From contig OZ242326.1 in assembly GCA_965208325.1 (NCBI GenBank), positions 384,001 to 448,000 on the forward strand: 64,000 nucleotides of DNA. Reading direction: 5' to 3'. The translations under genes and the position numbers were made by a program. The notes below the pieces were generated by a model. The model worked only from the letters and a program-made list of their open reading frames with translations, did no database searches and had not been told where the DNA came from. Positions 2,678 through 12,788 of this stretch are shown in pieces. Position 1 is the first letter of the stretch. Every line of letters starts with the position of its first letter. The stretch is from Candidatus Poribacteria bacterium. GTDB lineage: Bacteria > Poribacteria > WGA-4E > PCPOR2b.

Positions 2678-3565
2678 TCATACGCCCCACCGCTTCCGCA
2701 TCTTCTCCATCGGCACGGTTTCGCCCTGCATCCAAGCATAATGCGCAATCGGCTCATCTCCGATCCAACGTTCATCAACCGGTTCATCCGCGCGTTGGAA
2801 GCGTGTGTCAGCGCTAAGGCGGTAACGGTTCGTTGTGTTGTCCAGCGATCCGTGCATCGTGAACATGCCGAAAATTAACACATCTCCCATCTTAAATGAA
2901 CTCGTACCCCACTGCCCGCCGTAACGGTCAACTAATTCGATTGGATCATTCGAGAACGAGCCGGTCACATTGTCACGATCCACATCCATCTCGCCGTAAG
3001 TCTGTTTAATTAAATCAAAACGGTGGGAACCGACAAGAATCGCCAAAGGGCCCATCTCAAGCGGCAGGTCGCCAATTGGCGTCCAGCAGGTTACGACATG
3101 TTGCGTCCCGCGTCCCATGTAAACGATGTCGTAATGTGCACCGGTGAAGCCGCTCGGCTGTACCACGCGCAGCCATTTATAATCGTACGTGATGACGGGT
3201 GCACCGAAGAAATCTACAAAAAAACCCAAAACTTCAGGGGATTCGACCAGATTCAAAAATTCCGGTTGGTGGGTGACGGCGCTATTGCCGCCCATAAACA
3301 TGCCGCGCTTGCCTTCCGCCGGAATCCCGTCTGATACCGGATGCGCACGGTCGAGTTGCTCGTTCTCGTCCAGCTTCCTGAGCAGAAATCGGCGGGTTGC
3401 CTTGACGTTTTCCGGGTCGTACAATCCGCGAATTAACAGATATCCATCAGCCTTAAACCTAGCATACAGCTCCTCGCGGTCGCCGAGTACGCCATTTGCT
3501 TCTCGCAACCATCCAAGGTACTTCCCGCCCATTTCCATCTCTATTTTGTTCATCGTGAGAATCAC
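2678..3565 (-). CDS. PhyH-family Fe(II)/2OG dioxygenase
   Basis: AHYD (HxD), WTPIGD, GPLAILVGSH, GDVLIFGMFTMHGS and RLSADTR. Confidence 0.9.
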   Translation of the reverse strand: MILTMNKIEMEMGGKYLGWLREANGVLGDREELYARFKADGYLLIRGLYDPENVKATRRFLLRKLDENEQLDRAHPVSDGIPAEGKRGMFMGGNSAVTHQPEFLNLVESPEVLGFFVDFFGAPVITYDYKWLRVVQPSGFTGAHYDIVYMGRGTQHVVTCWTPIGDLPLEMGPLAILVGSHRFDLIKQTYGEMDVDRDNVTGSFSNDPIELVDRYGGQWGTSSFKMGDVLIFGMFTMHGSLDNTTNRYRLSADTRFQRADEPVDERWIGDEPIAHYAWMQGETVPMEKMRKRWGV

Positions 3566-3712
3566 GTCAAATCTCCGTTTTTCTCCGTTAGAAATACGTT
3601 AGCCAACCGTTAATCAACCCGTAATTCGTCCGCTAAAAATTTAATGCTGTGAACACTTGAAATAGTCAGTGCCATGTCAGAAATTTGCGCGGTTGCTTAA
3701 TGTAATCAATCA

Positions 3713-3741
3713 TTGACAAATTTCCAAAATTATATTACCAT
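3713..3741 (+). promoter_or_regulatory. sigma70-type promoter of the FG-GAP/TlpA operon
   Basis: TTGACA (3713-3718), 17-bp spacer, TACCAT (3736-3741), 40 bp upstream of ATG 3782. Confidence 0.65.
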
Positions 3742-3781
3742 CGAATCATAAAGCACACAACAAGAAAAAAGGGAAGGCATC

Positions 3782-6154
3782 ATGTATCGCCAGAGGCATC
3801 TTGTTATTGTTAACCTGATAATGGTCGTTGTGCTAACGAGTTCCTGCGGCATCGGGCGAGTTTTTGAACCCCTTGTATTCAATTCCTATGAGTCTCGGAT
3901 GCAATCGGTCATTGAGCAAGGCACGGTTGTTAAAAATTACTTGAAAAGCCTTGAACGTGCGCTTCGGGATGGTGATGACCGCACTATCGCACTATTGGCG
4001 CCCGAAGCCATCCGTTCGTTTCCACCCTGTGAGGAAGAAATAGAACGCCGGACTGATCTGCCTGGTGTGGAAATTATCCGTTGGGAATCAACGCCGGGAA
4101 ATGGAGGAGGCAATCCTTGGGTAAACCTAGCAGACCACTGGGGAAGCGGATCAATAATATCGAAGAGTTCGTTTAACATGATTCACCTCAACATAATCAG
4201 CGGCGACATCTGCGAGCCAGAAATCCGCATTAGCATACAGGGCATTGATACCGCGGGAAGACACCGCCAAGATGTCAGTTATATGCGGCTCAAGGTAGAT
4301 TTCTCCGGGCACGCCGCTGTCATTCGAGACAGCCTAAAATTTGTTTCCCATTCGCTTATACGCACCGGAGATACGCTATTTAAAGACGAAACGGAGAAAC
4401 GGGGACTGGTATTTCAGCCGCCCAACGTTCCATTTCGGGACGACCTAAAATTTGCGCCCTTTACGGCTACGGGTGGTGGAGTCGCCGTCGCTGATGTAGA
4501 TGGGGACGGATGGGACGATGTATACCTCATCGGCAGCGCGCCGAACACAAGTAGATTTTATAAGAATATTGGTGCCGGATACTTTGAGGAGGCGACAGCG
4601 AGTTCCGGATTAGCAAACCCCCAAGATATGGCTATGGCTGCTGCCATTGGCGACGTTGACCGAGACGCTGATTTGGATATTGTTGTAACGCACGGTTTTG
4701 CGCCGCCTACACTCTTCCGTAACCGCGGCGATACGGTGTTCATTCGTGAGCCGTTCGCGTCTTCAAATGGGCAAACCGAAGAGGGTGCCGCGACGCCCTC
4801 GTTGGTTGATGTCGATAACGACGGGGACCTCGACCTGTATGTTGCATACTACGGTCCGGTGTCAGAATACGTACCGGACACGATATACATTGGACTTAAC
4901 GGTGTTCAAGACCGCCTCTACATCAATGATGGCGCAGGGAATTTCACGGAAGAGGCGCGAAGCCGGGGGATTACCGATTCGCGATGGACATTTCAAGGCG
5001 CATTTGCTGATTTCGATGAGGACGGCGATGCCGATCTTTACCAAATTAACGATTTTGGACGCAACACGCTCTATCTGAATGACGGGACGGGGAATTTTAC
5101 GGATTGCACCCGCGACTGGGCGGGAACTGAAGCCTTTGGGTTCGGTATGAGCGGCAGTTGGGGCGACTTCAATGCGGACGGCAATCTCGATATGTATATC
5201 GCCGGCATTGCTTCAGGCGTGCAATGGTTCGCGGAACAGACCGATGTTATGCGATTTTACCTTCTAAACGCGAAGCGGAGCCGCTACTTGCCGCCCGCGC
5301 AAGTTGACCGCATAACAGCGGAACTTGAACCCTATATGATTTCCGCCGATCATCTGGGCGATTCCTTGCCCGCAATTCGCCAGCGATACTTCCAAGGAAA
5401 TGTCTTGCTTCGGCGCAACGGCAACGGATTTGATAACATCAGCCAACCATCCGGTACAGAATATGGCGAATGGGCATGGGGTTCAGGGTTTGTTGACTTT
5501 CAAAACGACGGACTAGTTGACCTTTACACAACCAACGGTTTTATTACGGGCGAGAAAAAAGACGATCTCTGAATGCCATTTTTCGAATCGGCGGTCCGCC
5601 GGCCTCTCGATTATTATGAAGGCGCATTTTATTCCGCCGATTTTGTTCGCTCCAATTCTTGGAACGGACTGGAAAGCAACTTTGCTTATCTCAACCTTGA
5701 TGGAAGTAACTTCCTTGAACTAGGTTTTGCACTTGGCATTGACAGTACTGCTGACGGACGAAGTTTCGTCGCTTTTGATTGTGACGGCGACGGGGATCAA
5801 GATTTGCTTGTTGCTAATCGGAACGCACCGGCTAAACTATTTGTCAACCGCTGGGCGGACGCTGCGAATAATAATTGGTTGAAAGTTCGTCTCATCGGTG
5901 ACAATGATAGAACCGCAGTTGGCGCCGTGGTTAAAGTTCAAACGGGCAATCGGAAGCAAGCCCAAACGTCCTCCTTGGGCAATAGCTACTTGTCCTGCTA
6001 CGCCGGACCGCTCCTATTTGGAATTGGTCCCGCAACTCGAGTCGATGCGGTAGATGTGGTTTGGCCGGGCGGTGAATCTAGCCGAATCACCGGGATTAAC
6101 GCTAACCAAATGATTGAAGTGCGTTTTCCCGCCGCAGCTCGGACGGACAAATGA
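3782..6154 (+). CDS. CRTAC1-like FG-GAP/VCBS repeat + ASPIC/UnbV lipoprotein with in-frame TGA at 5570-5572 (putative selenocysteine)
   Basis: Lipobox-like LTSSC and several DxDxDGxxD repeats. ORF 3782-5572 ends in TGA and ORF 5573-6154 follows immediately in the same frame, supplying the last FG-GAP repeat and the ASPIC/UnbV domain (WLKVRL..GA.V.V..LLFGIG..VVWPGG). Confidence 0.8.
5589..5601 (+). promoter_or_regulatory. putative bacterial SECIS hairpin
   Basis: CGGC-GGTCC-GCCG stem-loop. The loop G/GT lies 21-23 nt after the TGA, resembling the GGUC apex and spacing of the E. coli fdhF SECIS. Confidence 0.55.
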
Positions 6155-6684
6155 CGCTAATGACGAAACACCTTGGGAATTTACCCTGGCCGTATCTGCC
6201 TTTAGTTCTATCGCTCTCGGTTCTGGCGGGTTGCACTCAGGTCCATCAGACAATCGCCGTCGGTGAAATGATTGGCGATATTGATGTTGTTCAACTATCG
6301 GGTAAAAGAGAGAAACTTTCCTCTCTGTCCAAAGACCGTATCACTTTAGTGGTGTTCTGGGCAACTTGGTGCCAACGTTGCCGTGAAGAAGTTCCGGACA
6401 TCAATAATTTAGCGGCTGATTACGGATCGTCTTTAGCCGTGATTGGAATTTCAGCGGGCGAGACCCTCCACACCGTCAAAGCCCATTCCGCAGGCCTAGG
6501 CATACGCTACCCAGTGGTTGTTACCGAGTTATCCAACTTGGCTGCACTCGGAATTGACAGTATTCCGCGGTTGGTGGTTTTAGACTCGAAAGGGAGAATT
6601 CAGCGGATTGAAAACGGCGTGAATACGTCTTTACGGGCACGACTCACGCAACTCGCTCACGAAAACGAACCAAATCAAAATTGA
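6151..6684 (+). CDS. TlpA/ResA-like thiol-disulfide oxidoreductase, lipoprotein
   Basis: LAGC lipobox, FWATWCQRC (CxxC) and IPRLVVLD. ATGA overlap with the upstream gene. Confidence 0.88.
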   Translation: MTLMTKHLGNLPWPYLPLVLSLSVLAGCTQVHQTIAVGEMIGDIDVVQLSGKREKLSSLSKDRITLVVFWATWCQRCREEVPDINNLAADYGSSLAVIGISAGETLHTVKAHSAGLGIRYPVVVTELSNLAALGIDSIPRLVVLDSKGRIQRIENGVNTSLRARLTQLAHENEPNQN

Positions 6685-7206
6685 TGCGGCGGACAGGTAA
6701 AATATCACCGTATCCTTTTCCCGCTGTTCTGAACATACGAATCGCTTGCACAATACTGAGCGCTCCTGAAAATTTGCGCTCAACCCAACCTATCAGAGCT
6801 ACAACCCCCCATCAAATCGGCAAATGCCTAGCCGCTATTCTCGGTCCGGTTTGCAAATGTATTCAAAACTCTGGCAGTATCCAAAGGTGTCCCCATCAGC
6901 GCGATTGTGTCCCTTATGACACTCACCTCCATCGGCAATATTTTGGTTGATTTTGTCATCTCAGAATGCTAGGGAATCCTGTCACACACTAGCTTTTCGG
7001 CATTTCTGGGCGCACGTAGCAATGCGTCGGCTCGAAGTGCCCTAAAGTGTCCTTTTGTGCCCTAAATTCGGATTCACTTTTTGGGACATTTCTGATGCAT
7101 CGGGTATCATGTCCAGATTGCAGATTTGATTTAATGCCGAGGCGACGGCCGCCAATGCGGATTCCTCGAAATCAAATATCTGATTTTTGCGCACGTTCAG
7201 GTCACC

Positions 7207-7250
7207 AAAAAAAAAGCGAGGCTGCGACTCTTTCAGCGCCCTCGCCTCGC
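7207..7250 (-). terminator. possible Rho-independent terminator for the 7409-7852 gene
   Basis: On the minus strand, a GCGAGGC...GCCTCGC stem followed by 9 T. Confidence 0.45.
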
Positions 7251-7408
7251 CAATGAGAATGTAATCTTTATATTATAAGTGAACCAGTGCCGCCTGTTTT
7301 CCTGAATTATAAACGATGTGAAATGCATGTGCCAAGAGGAAAAGCGGTAGGTACCCCTTGTAGGTTGGGTTGAGCAGGCTTCCTAAAACCAAGGTCTCCT
7401 CTTAATCA

Positions 7409-7852
7409 TTACTCATGACTTCTCAGGTGTTCAATGTGGTTCTGGTTAAGGACGCTCATTTCGTCTCGCACGCCGCTGATTTCAGCTCGCACGCCGCTGA
7501 TTTCAGCTCGCACGCCGCTGATTTCAGCTCGTACATCGCTGATTTCGGTTCGTACATCGCTGATTTCGGATTTAAATTCAATTCGTAGTTTGCCAATCTC
7601 ATTCCGCAGGTCGCTAATTTCAGATCGAGTTTCGTTTCGCAGGTCGCTAATTTCGGAGCGAATTTCGGTTCTGACTTCATCAATTCGATTCTCTAGGCGT
7701 TGTCCTTGCTGCTGAAAATCGTCGTTTTGCTTGTCCATCCGCTTTTCAAGTTGCGCCGTGCGATAGAACAAGACGGCAATCTGGCCAATAAAACCCACGA
7801 CGACAACAATAATAAGGATTGTGTGCGATGGTGACCACGTGCCGAAGTCCAT
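7409..7852 (-). CDS. membrane-anchored coiled-coil protein with tandem heptad repeats (DUF1640/CCDC90/Bdr-like)
   Basis: N-terminal TM segment (ILIIVVVVGFIGQIAVLF), then repeated EIS(D/G)VR(A/T) and EISDLRN units. Confidence 0.75.
   Translation of the reverse strand: MDFGTWSPSHTILIIVVVVGFIGQIAVLFYRTAQLEKRMDKQNDDFQQQGQRLENRIDEVRTEIRSEISDLRNETRSEISDLRNEIGKLRIEFKSEISDVRTEISDVRAEISGVRAEISGVRAEISGVRDEMSVLNQNHIEHLRSHE
7466..7570. repeat. 21-bp coding tandem repeat
   Basis: TCGCACGCCGCTGATTTCAGC x3 followed by degenerate TCGTACATCGCTGATTTCGGT copies. Confidence 0.9.
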
Positions 7853-8002
7853 TGATTGCGCCTCCTGCCGTACTTCTTTCGCTCAACAAGACATTGGGAA
7901 TGCGTGTAAAAGCGTGTTGATTTTCTTAGGGAAATGTGAGCCCGACATGAATCTGTTTTGCGCGGCCATTAGCTTCACGGCATTTTTCGTTAAGCTAAGT
8001 TA

Positions 8003-8031
8003 AGTATATCATAATACCAAACAAAAGTCAA
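8003..8031 (-). promoter_or_regulatory. sigma70-type promoter for the coiled-coil gene
   Basis: Minus strand TTGACT, 17-bp spacer ending in TGn, TATACT. Confidence 0.6.
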
Positions 8032-8228
8032 CATTTTGCGACGGAGTGTGGCTTTTTTAGGTTGGATTGAGATCGACGGAACGATTAGAGAAGGCTTTAG
8101 CGAATACATAACGAGTGAGATATCCTTCTTTAGTTTCTCCCTTTATCAAAACCGCTCAACCAAAGCCGCAATCCAAAAAATACGGCAAAATTTAAACAAC
8201 AGATAACCAACTACTGGTCGCAGACTGC

Positions 8229-8274
8229 CAACGTAAATTTTTACGTTGACGTAACATACAATTACATATATAAT
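8229..8274 (+). promoter_or_regulatory. sigma70 promoter overlapped by a palindromic operator-like site
   Basis: TTGACG (8246-8251), 17 bp, TATAAT (8269-8274). Perfect inverted repeat CAACGTAAA-tt-TTTACGTTG at 8229-8248. Confidence 0.7.
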
Positions 8275-8485
8275 ATTAAGTAATGAGTTGTAAGGTAGCG
8301 GGTATGCGTTAAAACCAGGTTACTAGCCGTACCGTATGTGCCACTGTTTCTAGCTAGGCGGCAAATACGAAAATTACGTGGTAAAGCCTGCAATCGAAAA
8401 TGAAGAAATCTTAAAAACACCGAAGAATCGAAGGAGGGTCGCTTTGACGATTAACGCAGTTGGTCGCAATCGTGGAAGGAAAAAA

Positions 8486-9241
8486 ATGCGCATGAATATA
8501 AAGTTGTTTTGTATTATGTTGGCGGTGTCGTCTACTTGGGCTTACGCAAAACCTAAGTTTGAAGATATAAGAGTATTTGAAGCCTCCAGTCGGGGGGAAA
8601 TTTTTATTATTAATGGAAATGAAAAGGCAATCTTGTCGTCCCCTGCAGGAGTGTTCGACATTAAGTGTTTGCAGCAAGGCATACCTCGAGGCGTCTTTTT
8701 TATTGGGGGAACGAGTATAGTACAGATAGAAGAAACATCGTGGGATAAAAGGAAACAGGGCTATTTGGCGCATTTTGAAAATGAAAGCGTAGTGTTTAAA
8801 CCATTGGATGTTTTTCCGAAGAACACCATTCAAAACGTCAAGTTACTGCACAATTCAAGGAGATTTAGTGTTTACGAGAAAAACGCTTCAGTAGTCGTTT
8901 TTAACATAGATACTAAAAAAGTTGTAGAGCCCGAAAAGAACACTTCCTCTGGAAAATCATTTAGAGATGGGTCACTAACATTTCTGATACTCGATGAAAG
9001 TAAAGCACAAATGTACGGAAATCAGGGAAGTGACTCTATCGAATTTTATAGAGACAAGAATTGCCTAATATTTACGGAAACAACGCCGGTTGGAAGCAAA
9101 CATGTTTTCATAATTTCAGACAAATATGACCCCGGTGAAATGGGCTTCAGATACACCTATGTGAGAAACACTTTGAATATAATCTTCAGCAACGAGTTGA
9201 TTCGCACAACTTCACATGGACTAGTAAAGGTAGATTATTAG
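8486..9241 (+). CDS. AT-rich hypothetical secreted protein
   Basis: The ORF track starts at 8378, but GGAAGG precedes ATG 8486 and is followed by a signal peptide (MRMNIKLFCIMLAVSSTWAYA). No family recognised. Confidence 0.6.
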   Translation: MRMNIKLFCIMLAVSSTWAYAKPKFEDIRVFEASSRGEIFIINGNEKAILSSPAGVFDIKCLQQGIPRGVFFIGGTSIVQIEETSWDKRKQGYLAHFENESVVFKPLDVFPKNTIQNVKLLHNSRRFSVYEKNASVVVFNIDTKKVVEPEKNTSSGKSFRDGSLTFLILDESKAQMYGNQGSDSIEFYRDKNCLIFTETTPVGSKHVFIISDKYDPGEMGFRYTYVRNTLNIIFSNELIRTTSHGLVKVDY

Positions 9242-9558: not shown

Positions 9559-9978
9559 TCAAAACATGCGTTCACCGGGTAGAACCGACGCTTGCCGAAT
9601 CCAGCCCGCCAATAACTCCTCGTCGAAAGGATCGTCCTCGTGGATGTGAAAATAGCGCACCGCCTCATGTTTGGATTTAACGGGCGGCACGGGTCGCAGT
9701 GACGCGCCGTTTAGGAAGGTCACCTTGACATACTTTGTGAAGCAATGGAACGAGAGGAACCAACCTTGCCCTTCGATCCCATAGAAGGGTGAGTTCCACC
9801 TCACCGCTTTGCGCACTTCGGGCACGGTGCGCGCGATGAGTGCATCGAGGTTGCGTCCAACGTCCTGTTTCCATCCCGGCATGGCTGCGATGTACGCTTG
9901 GACAAGTGCGTCCCCGTCACCTTTTGGAATTTGCGGGTTGCCCCCGGAGAGAAGTTTCGGTTCGGATGAGTTTTTCAT
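9559..9978 (-). CDS. DUF1801 (YdhG-like) protein
   Basis: LLSGGNPQIPKGDGD, AVRWNSPFYG and YVKVTFLNGASL. Confidence 0.85.
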   Translation of the reverse strand: MKNSSEPKLLSGGNPQIPKGDGDALVQAYIAAMPGWKQDVGRNLDALIARTVPEVRKAVRWNSPFYGIEGQGWFLSFHCFTKYVKVTFLNGASLRPVPPVKSKHEAVRYFHIHEDDPFDEELLAGWIRQASVLPGERMF

Positions 9979-10178
9979 AATTATTATTGTACCATATTAC
10001 GATCATGTAGTCATTGGTGCAAGTTTGAAATAGAGAGTATAACCGGCGTGAACGGAGAGCACTCCACCATGACTTAGCTTCGGCACAAAATTTACCGTGG
10101 TTATGGGAAAATTTCCACCGCTAAGGATGAATTGAGCGCCGAGAAATCATCAATTTTACATAAATCCAAATCGAATAT

Positions 10179-10415: not shown

Positions 10416-12347
10416 CTACCAACCCCACTCAGTAAAATACGGGAAGATTCTGTACACATGCTGCCCGCGTATCTCGCCGAAGATTGTCCATAAACTGCCG
10501 ATAACGTGTTGGCCCAAGATTATGCCAATAAAGAACGGTACCATGCGACGATTGAGCTGAATCCCGCCGAACTTTAGAATTACCCACTTAATCAGCCACG
10601 CGGCAAAGACTGAAAACCAGATTCCGCCCATCATCCAACCGCATGCCACGGCATAACCGACGGGATGGAACGGGAATGCAAGGAATCGTTGATGCAATAG
10701 ACGAAGGACGACAGTGATACCCGCGCCCATCCCAACGTCGCGAAGCATCGGATAGTTCTGATCGCGCGGGTGTTTAATCCAACTGTCCAACATTCGGAAA
10801 CCGTTGTGGCCGATATTGTGGTAAACGTTGTCCGCGCCGAAGCGGTACATGTTGTCGAGCAGCGCCCAAAAACCGGCAAATGTGCCAACAATTGAAGCGA
10901 TAACCATTGCAATTAAGAAATGCCGGCTGCGGGCATTTAGCAGTTGCGCCATCTTGAATCCTTCAATCTGATGACCAACCGGATGGGAGCGGTATGCGCG
11001 GCACATCCAGAACAGATGGCTGAACATGGCGATATTCGTCACCCCGATACGCCGTGAGCCGAATACGTTCAATAGCATCTGATCCGGCCCCATAAACTCG
11101 GCGTCGTGTGCTGGAGGACCTATCTCGGCACGAATGCGAGCTATAGCAACGGCATAGAGAATATATACGAGTAGAAACAGAAGAACGACCCACGCGGACA
11201 TGCGGGCGTATCCGAGGAACGCCACCATAGACACGACACCAAGGACGATGCCGATGATAGCCGATCGGTAGCTCATTGCCTCGTTTGCGGCAGTTTCAGG
11301 CGTTTTGCCCCGGACAACCTCTGTGAACACTTGCTTTAGATGGTTTCGTGCAGACCACAAAGGTAAAATTGCTAAGACTATCCATGCCCCCGCAGTTTGG
11401 TAACTTCGGAATGGCCCTGGTGTTGCCCAGATGCCCACCGCATCTCAATACACTAAGTCCGCCTTCCAGAAAAGATGGAAGAACCAAGCAGAAAACGCCA
11501 GATTCAGCGGCAAGAAATAAGCCATACCGACCACGAAGGGGTAGACCGCCAACGGCAGCCAACCGACAGCATTCCACGGCTTTTCGGTGAAGAATCTGCC
11601 GAGATTGTAGATTGGCGCAAAATTCGGAGCTGCGGGCCACAAGCCGTGCAGCCCGTTGATGAGGTCAAATGCGCCGGCCAGCCCGAATCCTAGCCACAAC
11701 ATGCGGTTGGAAAGCAACCCGGTGCCGCCCTTTGCCATCTCCATCGGTAGTTGTATAACAGGATAGGCGAGTTTTTCATTTTCTGTCCACTGTTTGCGAA
11801 TGATTACGTTGATACACACAATTACGAAGAAGAGCACGATCAGAAAACTGCCCCAAGCTATAGCCGGGATTAGCCACGGCATGAAATGTTCCGAGACATA
11901 GAGAGAGGTTTCGCCGTGATGGTAACCTAGGAGCGCTGCCGGGTCGTAAACGGTTGCCCATTCGGGTACGTGTCTCCCGAAAAGCGTCATCCATTCGTTT
12001 TCTGGCGTCACAAACCAAAAACTCGTGAGGTGCTGAACCATGACGAGCAATAGGTCGTGTCCGAATATGCCGGTCGCGATGGCTGTCATCACATATATGA
12101 TGATGAGTTCTACGGGTTGAAAGGCGGCGCCGGGAGCGTATTTGTTAAGAATGGCGTTTAACACCAGCAGCAGGAATAGGGTGAACGTGACGTTGTAAAA
12201 TAGTGTGAAGAGTGTCGAAAAGACGGGCTGATAAACGGTTTCAGCGAGCGTCAGCCAATACAAATTGATAGGAATGAGGAGTGCGCCGATAATCAGTGCA
12301 CGGTATGAAATACCGGTGGGATTACGAGGGGTCGATCCAGCTTTCAA
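10416..12347 (-). pseudogene. DUF6785/DUF6784-like multi-pass membrane protein interrupted by one in-frame TGA (11445-11447)
   Basis: ORFs 11445-12347 and 10416-11438 are in the same frame (...WKADLVY*DAVGIW...). Together they align end to end with the intact paralog at 27754-29661. Confidence 0.75.
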
Positions 12348-12788
12348 ACGATCACCGGTGCGAGGGTTTTCAAACGTCTTAGCAAAAAGGAGGAATAGGA
12401 CGGAACAACGTTAAAACAATCACAATAACGGAGTGCGTCATTCTAGCACACAAGATTACACTGAACAACATGAAACAGATGTTCCATTGACCGTTCTACC
12501 GGACTATGCTAATCTGTAATTTCTGCGCTAAATGTAACCATTTATGGCTGTAGGCTGGTACGCATTCCGTTTGTTTCAGTAAAACCGAAATTCATTTTTG
12601 CTCTGCGGTAGGTTCGATTTTGCAGCCGAACCGGCATTCATCCATTCTTGTGGGTGCGGTTTGAATCCGCGCCAACCGAAACACATGCAAATACAAATGG
12701 AATTGACTGTAAATCGTAATATATTTGTTTAAATCGAATTTTCAAGGGAGAATGCTGCGCTGGAAATTCTATGACGTAGACGAATGCA

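Follow-up and report, generated by a model that had tools for sequence, protein, structure and literature searches.

Organization of the locus

A 64,000-nucleotide (nt) stretch of a Candidatus Poribacteria genome (assembly GCA_965208325.1, contig OZ242326.1, positions 384,001–448,000; referred to below as the window, with its first letter as position 1) contains a gene for a CRTAC1-like protein that is interrupted by a single in-frame TGA codon and followed by an overlapping gene for a thioredoxin-like lipoprotein (Table 1). Two open reading frames (ORFs), 3782–5572 (596 aa) and 5573–6154 (193 aa), lie on the plus strand in the same frame with zero spacing. Reading through the one TGA joins them into a frame of 790 residues, in which the TGA is codon 597 and the junction reads ...GFITGEKKDDL-TGA-MPFFESAVRR.... 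Pfam detects five stretches of FG-GAP_3 (PF13517, VCBS) in the first half (123.6 bits against a cut-off of 26.9), and a partial FG-GAP_3 match plus UnbV_ASPIC (PF07593; cut-off 23.4 bits) in the second. Because of the domain content of each half, and because full-length homologs span the junction, the two ORFs are incomplete parts of one architecture, as had been proposed in an initial, sequence-only reading of this locus. The read-through protein has the arrangement that defines the CRTAC1-like class in Pfam terms, FG-GAP/VCBS repeats followed by an ASPIC/UnbV domain; no NCBIfam model matches it over its whole length. The N-terminal domain has no Pfam or NCBIfam family, and ESM Atlas returned only unnamed clusters for it.

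The read-through product is predicted to be an exported, periplasm-facing lipoprotein, judging from a lipobox read by eye, with Cys22 assigned by the usual lipobox rule. Homologs likewise begin with a lipobox (...GILSC, ...LLSSC, ...LALGC or ...AVAAC) or with a membrane helix. The sequence-only reading had also placed a good promoter before the operon. A sigma-70-like match is indeed present there, but sites agreeing with the consensus at 10 of 12 positions are common locally (12 between 3400 and 7400, versus 4.5 ± 2.0 in shuffled sequence), and the match is therefore weak evidence.

Table 1. Features of the selenoprotein locus (window coordinates) and other genes with an in-frame TGA in the window's genome (G000, contig C1 coordinates)
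Feature	Position	Strand	Basis or remark
Sigma-70-like promoter match, TTGACA-17-TACCAT	3713..3741	+	10/12 consensus positions
Predicted selenoprotein gene, CRTAC1-like FG-GAP/VCBS propeller + ASPIC/UnbV	3782..6154	+	790 codons + TGA stop 6152–6154
Predicted signal peptide with lipobox, ...VVLTSS-C22	3782..3847	+	Sequence read by eye
N-terminal domain, ~180 residues	3848..4381	+	No family match
FG-GAP/VCBS repeats, DxDxDG motifs (propeller blades)	4454..5536	+	PF13517; invariant Asp/Gly columns in alignment
In-frame TGA, putative selenocysteine codon 597, motif NG-x8-D-L-[U]-x-x-F	5570..5572	+	Homolog comparison
SECIS-like hairpin UCGGCG-GUC-CGCCGG	5588..5602	+	GGU at nt 24–26, U of UGA = 1
ASPIC/UnbV domain	5915..6115	+	PF07593, residues 115–181 of the 193-aa second ORF, 53.4 bits
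TlpA/ResA-like thioredoxin-fold lipoprotein gene	6151..6684	+	ATGA overlap; lipobox Cys28 6232–6234; WCQRC 6370–6381
FdhA-type gene	G000:C1 1502024–1504801	-
AhpC-TSA/Redoxin gene	G000:C1 4184195–4184839	+
AhpC-TSA/Redoxin gene	G000:C1 4409303–4410805	+
selD gene	G000:C1 4481278–4482201	-

TGA and cysteine share one column of a conserved family motif

Database searches with the read-through protein returned 3170 matches at E <= 0.001. Among the 120 relatives listed, at least 19 (97 down to 44% identity) are 442–628 residues long and cover only the part before the TGA, and relatives at ~41% identity are 807–821 residues long and span the TGA position. Exactly one TGA, always in the same column, is present in six copies of the gene from five Poribacteria genomes at 100 to 33% identity: in the window's genome (G000), in G002 (91%), in G001 and G003 (59%), and in two tandem paralogs of G009, which belongs to another genus (35 and 33%). 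The G009 duplicates occupy 3510–5951 and 6192–8726 on the minus strand of contig G009:C617 (locus L041), and both have the TGA and a GGUC hairpin.

The column was surveyed more widely by local tblastn of residues 530–669 against loci drawn from relatives, metagenomes and species-representative genomes, taking only matches that span the column and leaving out the duplicate locus L025. The distinct forms obtained numbered 22 with TGA and 36 without. A stop codon in the column is always TGA, in 22 distinct forms with ~25% identity at the lowest, and never TAA or TAG; two of the TGA forms (L142 and L169) could be placed only after a one- or two-residue shift. Records carrying TGA forms are labelled Poribacteria, Myxococcota, 'Deltaproteobacteria', Planctomycetota (Mariniblastus), Verrucomicrobiales/Akkermansiaceae and, in one case, a 'Patescibacteria group' bin. 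No close orthologs were found in the metagenome scan, where the best identity was 35%; distant TGA forms were obtained from it.

Cysteine is the classic counterpart of selenocysteine (Sec) in homologous proteins. It occupies the D-D-L-x column in eight forms: the database proteins P0016, P0017, P0019, P0020 and P0021 (HDL-C-LDFAR) and three Bryobacterales loci (KDL-C-SFFWRQVV). Among 96 full-length database homologs the column holds Asp in 55, Leu in 13, Cys in 5 and Glu in 3, with other residues scattered, and the surrounding motif in our alignment (A2) is NG-x(8-10)-D-[LIV]-[U/C/D/E/S/K/L]-x-F-W-R-x-V-V. Position 597 is the only conserved Cys/Sec position, no second Cys column being kept in the U/C group. 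In a FastTree phylogeny, for which a random 20 of the 57 Asp forms were used and segments shorter than 400 aa were left out, the TGA forms fall into three groups and the Cys forms lie beside or among them. From these comparisons, we conclude that Sec/Cys is a trait of particular clades inside a conserved family motif.

A hairpin with a GGU loop accompanies the TGA

The sequence-only reading described a CGGC-GGTCC-GCCG hairpin with its apex 21–23 nt past the TGA, similar to a selenocysteine insertion sequence (SECIS). This hairpin is present at 5589–5601, and can be drawn equally with arms at 5588–5593 and 5597–5602 around a GUC loop; its GGU lies 21–23 nt past the TGA and its folding energy is -7.7 kcal/mol. 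Taken alone the window hairpin is unexceptional, so its significance has to come from homolog comparison. For the count, a criterion fixed in advance required a loop of 3–8 nt with GGU on its 5' side, closed by 4 or more pairs, and a first G lying 16–34 nt from the U of UGA. By this criterion 20 of the 22 TGA forms are followed by a GGU-loop hairpin (first G at nt 21, 24 or 28), as against 1 of the 36 non-TGA homologs at the equivalent place; the background rate over codon positions in the same 22 genes is 6.8% (1278/18915).

The loop is constant, GGUC (G-GUC-C in the window's genus), while the stems vary by clade (ucggcg/cgccga, gucgacg/cgucggc, gcgc/gcgc, gugc/gcac, gaacguc/gacguuc, cgcac/gugcg and ggcgcgc/gugcgcc). 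Between the two G009 paralogs the hairpin differs at a single compensatory pair, U-A versus C-G, through two synonymous changes, and a compensatory difference between the window's genome and G001/G003, G-C versus A-U, was read directly. In one clade the GGUC falls in another reading frame (GUC GGU CGA), so amino-acid conservation cannot explain it. Pairing was counted formally on 15 tetraloop-clade sequences, with clade A (the window's genus plus L121) left out because its triloop register misfits without gaps. In this set 84.8% of pairing cells are paired, versus 63.5 ± 3.3% in shuffles, and the covariation score is 0.547, versus 0.179; neither value was reached in 500 shuffles. Six of the seven pairs vary on both sides, and controls in which the register was slid gave 19–49% pairing.

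The genome encodes selenocysteine machinery and further predicted selenoproteins

The window comes from a 4.7-Mb genome assembled as a single contig. The stretch is found in sponge metagenome runs, and there is no RNA run among those listed for it. The genome contains a tRNA-Sec gene (77.5 bits, gathering score 47) adjoined by selB (373.5 bits, cut-off 242) and selA (588.7 bits, cut-off 268), together with selD (376.8 bits), which itself has an in-frame TGA. In three more genes a Pfam domain runs across a TGA: an FdhA-type molybdopterin oxidoreductase (CSRA-U-HAPTV) and two exported AhpC-TSA/Redoxin proteins with UxxC, one of them fused to a Big_9 domain. In these three genes and in selD, a hairpin loop starts 21–25 nt from the UGA. 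Given the machinery and the three further genes with a domain-spanning TGA, Sec decoding is in active use in this genome.

A genome screen for TGA codons between open frames gave 484 candidates, mostly noise, 45 of them with a hairpin. Nine were compared with Pfam: a domain extends across the TGA in four (the FdhA-type gene, the two AhpC-TSA genes and a DUF6785 gene that is discussed below), two are two-gene junctions, one has domains on one side only, and two have no match. Across genomes, selB is above cut-off in all 15 carriers of the TGA form (G000–G003, G009 and ten others) and in 4 of 10 sampled genomes with non-TGA forms only. Within the Poribacteria order it occurs in 60 of 61 genomes and is non-discriminating there.

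An intact CxxC in the neighbouring or fused thioredoxin-like domain covaries with the TGA

The gene downstream overlaps the selenoprotein stop by ATGA, has an LAGC lipobox and a WCQRC motif, and gives Thioredoxin_8, AhpC-TSA and Redoxin matches above the Pfam cut-offs. It thus combines a CxxC-bearing thioredoxin fold with an export signal, and both its sequence and the Pfam matches confirm the earlier description of an ATGA-overlapping, CxxC-containing TlpA-like lipoprotein. Its scores lie far under the NCBIfam cut-offs for ResA (64.4 versus 170 bits), DsbE (39.4 versus 123) and TlpA (38 versus 230), which indicates a distinct subfamily that is none of these three. A DsbD_TM homolog is encoded elsewhere in the genome.

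The surroundings of the other TGA forms were searched with an iterated profile built from the window's TlpA-like protein, applied to six-frame segments of all loci. A TlpA-like domain on the same strand, 580–780 nt downstream of the TGA, was found in 11 of the 20 distinct TGA forms that could be assessed; two further TGA loci are too short. G000, G002 and L121 encode the domain in a gene of its own, and it is fused C-terminally in L062 (two copies), L147, L063, L180, L102, L098 and L104. The CxxC is intact in all 11 of these TGA-linked domains (WCQRC, WCSRC, WCKSC, WCAAC, WCPNC, WCTAC, WCPAC and TCASC). A C-terminal thioredoxin-like domain is also present in 76 of the 96 full-length non-TGA database homologs, and an intact CxxC remains in none of the 76: the position reads WAPPS, SAPPS and similar, with one Cys left in two of them. 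The sole locus-derived non-TGA form with a thioredoxin-like domain has ASPSC. This co-variation of TGA and CxxC argues more strongly than any other observation for joint action of Sec597 and the CxxC, and it points to a redox relay formed by Sec597 and the TlpA-like CxxC.

Proposed mechanism and alternative readings

Taken together, we favour, with a probability of roughly 0.88, the explanation that the locus encodes a single exported CRTAC1-like protein with Sec at residue 597, which is decoded by means of SelB and the hairpin and exchanges redox equivalents with the TlpA-like CxxC. As the homolog comparisons show, UGA597 is decoded by SelA, SelB, SelD and tRNA-Sec, with SelB recruited by the hairpin 18–32 nt downstream through its apical GGU(C) loop. 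Sec597, within D-[LIV]-[U/C/D/E]-x-F-W-R-x-V-V, would be redox-active and trade electrons with the CxxC in the periplasm. As the sole selenol, located where the propeller is linked to the last blade plus ASPIC domain, it would cycle between reduced and oxidised states. The partner would be the translationally coupled downstream lipoprotein here and the C-terminally fused domain in planctomycete and verrucomicrobial relatives, and the TlpA-like protein could be kept reduced via a DsbD/CcdA-type membrane protein. This chemistry would be lost in relatives whose column holds Asp and whose fused thioredoxin domain reads AxxS.

Several observations weigh against this explanation. The homologous sequences are kin that represent about four clades, and the counts overstate their independence. 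Single-sequence folding of the window hairpin is not significant (25-mer, Z = -0.18; 61 nt, Z = -0.37), and in the minimum-energy fold of the 61 nt the hairpin bases are paired otherwise. Rfam gave no match, either for the whole window at the gathering threshold or for 5500–5700 at E <= 10. In two of the 22 TGA forms, L147 and L169, the GGU-loop hairpin is absent, and the hairpins that form there instead have GU in their loops. The relay is further burdened by G001 and G003, whose Sec genes are 59% orthologs, and by G009: no TlpA ortholog was found in these three genomes, and the best matches there are generic thioredoxin folds at ~30% identity. There is no thioredoxin domain nearby in 9 of the 20 assessable TGA forms, and none is fused to the five database Cys forms. 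The dedicated reductant partner proposed by the sequence-only reading would thus not be universal, as these three genomes lack it. Lastly, the usual residue of the column is Asp or Glu, which also fits a metal ligand or an acid/nucleophile.

In the most serious competitor, Sec597 is real and serves as a metal ligand or catalytic nucleophile, with no TlpA relay, and the TlpA-like protein has another role such as general periplasmic reduction. We consider this unlikely, though well ahead of the other two alternatives. It accounts for the 55 Asp and 3 Glu among the 96 database homologs, for the richness of the family in Ca-binding DxDxDG motifs, and for the three carrier genomes without this TlpA and the nine assessable TGA forms with no thioredoxin domain nearby. 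It also has a parallel in the dimethyl sulfoxide (DMSO) reductase family, in which the molybdenum ligand alternates among Sec, Cys, Ser and Asp. What tells against it is the strict co-variation, with CxxC in 11 of 11 TGA-linked and 0 of 76 non-TGA-linked domains; in addition, unless the two share a redox function, ATGA coupling at this locus and fusion elsewhere have no easy explanation.

A second alternative is a pseudogene whose TGA arose by nonsense mutation or sequencing error, or else two genes that the TGA separates, the second starting at ATG 5573. Gene callers do split the frame, as seen in the at least 19 of 120 listed relatives of ~600 residues that end here, and in the window's genus an ATG directly follows the TGA. 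Moreover, a real nonsense TGA occurs in the same window. The gene for a membrane protein with DUF6785 and DUF6784 (10419–12410, minus strand) has one in-frame TGA, at 11445–11447, with a domain running across the stop (PF20581, E = 2.5e-144). All five close relatives, however, read CGA (Arg) in that column; by this comparison the DUF6785 TGA is a nonsense mutation or sequencing error and not a Sec codon, and it provides a negative control 6 kb from the Sec gene. The TGA at codon 597 behaves differently, being kept in 22 distinct homologs down to ~25% identity, across phyla and never as TAA or TAG. In other clades the codon after the TGA is CTG, AGT, AGC, ACC or CCA, so that the restart at ATG 5573 fails as an explanation, and the conserved x-x-F-W-R-x-V-V would sit upstream of any possible restart. 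Between G000 and G002 the ratio of nonsynonymous to synonymous substitution rates (dN/dS) is alike on both sides, 0.118 before the TGA and 0.113 after it, with 0.04 over the first 40 codons after it. A contig from an independent assembly in a different study covers 5300–5613 with 0 differences, so a fault of a single assembly cannot account for the TGA; in runs X6 and X7 there is no difference at 5570–5572 among the differences listed (40 of 261). With these observations this second alternative becomes very improbable. The separate product from ATG 5573 that the sequence-only reading had named as grounds for its own rejection is not upheld, and its single Sec-containing beta-propeller lipoprotein of ~790 aa is supported by the TGA/Cys column, the hairpin, selB and the equal dN/dS. 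We conclude from the homolog comparisons that the TGA at 5570–5572 is almost certainly read as Sec, giving one protein of 790 residues.

Readthrough without Sec, through a reassigned code (Trp or Gly) or near-cognate decoding, is the slightest possibility of the three: the frame is open under such codes and nothing else speaks in favour, whereas TGA is a normal stop that ends 1546 of the 4272 genomic frames open for at least 150 codons (TAA 1604, TAG 1122), ruling out code reassignment, the genome carries the full Sec machinery, the nearest full-length relatives have Cys and not Trp or Gly, the SelB-type hairpin is conserved and tracks the TGA forms (20/22 versus 1/36), and selB is present in 15 of 15 carriers.

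Relation to known systems

In Escherichia coli fdhF, SelB binds an in-ORF SECIS hairpin whose GGUC apical loop lies ~20 nt after the UGA. The window gene is similar in having an in-frame UGA, a coding hairpin just downstream, a G/U apical loop, and selA, selB, selD and tRNA-Sec in the genome, and the FdhA-type gene of the same genome has the hairpin kind of fdhF-type recoding. Unlike the fdhF type, the window stem is short (6 bp) and a bulged U was not seen; the loop in the window's genus is a GUC triloop or GGUCC pentaloop, where other clades have a GGUC tetraloop; and the protein that carries the Sec does not belong to the oxidoreductases of known fold. The predicted protein also resembles the thioredoxin-fold UxxC selenoproteins of Prx-like and thiol:disulfide-interchange-like type, two of which are encoded in this genome, in being exported or periplasmic and in drawing on the same machinery. 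In the UxxC type, Sec replaces the first Cys of a CxxC within the thioredoxin fold, whereas here it would lie in the propeller/ASPIC linker and the thioredoxin partner has an ordinary CxxC.

The downstream gene product is like the TlpA, ResA and DsbE proteins fed by CcdA/DsbD in its lipobox, its WCxxC, its Redoxin, AhpC-TSA and Thioredoxin_8 matches, and the presence of a DsbD_TM gene in the genome. Unlike those proteins, it has relatives that are fused to Sec-containing CRTAC1-like proteins. CRTAC1 is not known to have a redox function. The human protein has an FG-GAP propeller and an ASPIC/UnbV domain too, and its structure (PDB 9etn) matches the A2 profile with E = 5.3e-43. The alignment covers profile positions 222–356 and 633–764 only and skips the stretch with the Sec column, and human CRTAC1 is for this reason uninformative on the Sec site.

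Four ASPIC/UnbV FG-GAP selenoprotein candidates appear in S9 Table of Kim et al., 2016 (PLoS One, PMC4807772). In their annotation a TGA divides each into two adjacent genes; bSECISearch reported a SECIS in three of the four, and the closest match has Gly at the column. The available part of the main text of that paper contains no discussion of these candidates, no thioredoxin link and no family survey. The window gene, a possible ortholog of these candidates, shares with them the domain description and the TGA-split annotation and differs in coming from Poribacteria and in having the thioredoxin domain as a separate overlapping gene. A full-text literature search gave nothing relevant joining selenoprotein or selenocysteine with FG-GAP, ASPIC or CRTAC1. 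The terms FG-GAP, ASPIC, VCBS, CRTAC, propeller and UnbV are absent from the main texts of recent papers on selenoprotein reviews, tools and databases (PMC13188914, PMC12013277, PMC13326102 and PMC9312934), and the deep-Sep and BSepDB supplementary files searched contain no FG-GAP, ASPIC, VCBS, CRTAC1 or UnbV entries. A single-cell study of Poribacteria reports many VCBS and ASPIC/UnbV domains, and 'selen' does not occur in its main text. Judged by homolog comparison and against this literature, the gene belongs to a barely documented selenoprotein family and its Sec codon is genuine and conserved; the local twist is the separate, overlapping thioredoxin gene.

Neighbouring genes and other features of the window

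Two genes of the PhyH family (phytanoyl-CoA dioxygenase-like) lie directly upstream in divergent orientation, at 1764–2573 and 2678–3565 on the minus strand. In G001 and G003, a PhyH-like gene, judged by eye, follows the Sec gene in place of TlpA. On the other side of the locus, the 147-aa product of 7409–7852 on the minus strand has a membrane helix at its N-terminus and carries heptad-like repeats in tandem (EISDLRNETRS / EISGVRA). In this gene, other assemblies from sponge metagenomes show 21- and 42-nt indels, from which we take the repeat number to vary between strains.

At 9580–10007, summed contig depth in four runs exceeds that of the flanks, several-fold in X2, X6 and X8 and ~twofold in X7. 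In X2 the depth there is 104–142 versus ~5–15, and many short contigs end in the segment, which suggests a repeated or mobile segment. Another TGA-joined ORF pair (156 + 326 codons, ...ESGLPLG-TGA-LTDKVWV...), picked up in the genome screen, is present in five identical copies in the genome, one of them at window position ~56002 on the minus strand; it resembles an insertion sequence whose transposase is split or recoded.

Implications

The findings bear first on annotation, in that the window gene is entered as a truncated product of ~600 residues, as are its close relatives in at least 19 database clusters. They also concern a large family (the 3170 matches above) without an assigned enzymatic function, for which the joint retention of Sec/Cys and CxxC would be the first concrete handle on chemical activity. 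The hypothesis that we offer is that U597, Cys74 and Cys77 form a periplasmic redox relay. A bolder extension, which we put forward tentatively and regard as less likely than not, is that CRTAC1-like propellers were ancestrally extracytoplasmic selenoenzymes and are still so here, with the linker Sec recycled by a dedicated TlpA-like CxxC domain, either fused or encoded by an adjacent gene, and the propeller holding an oxidised substrate; the far commoner Asp/AxxS forms, and with them the lineage of animal CRTAC1, might then be redox-dead descendants that only bind. For the ecology of sponge-associated Poribacteria, the locus would add one more exported selenoprotein to their use of selenium.

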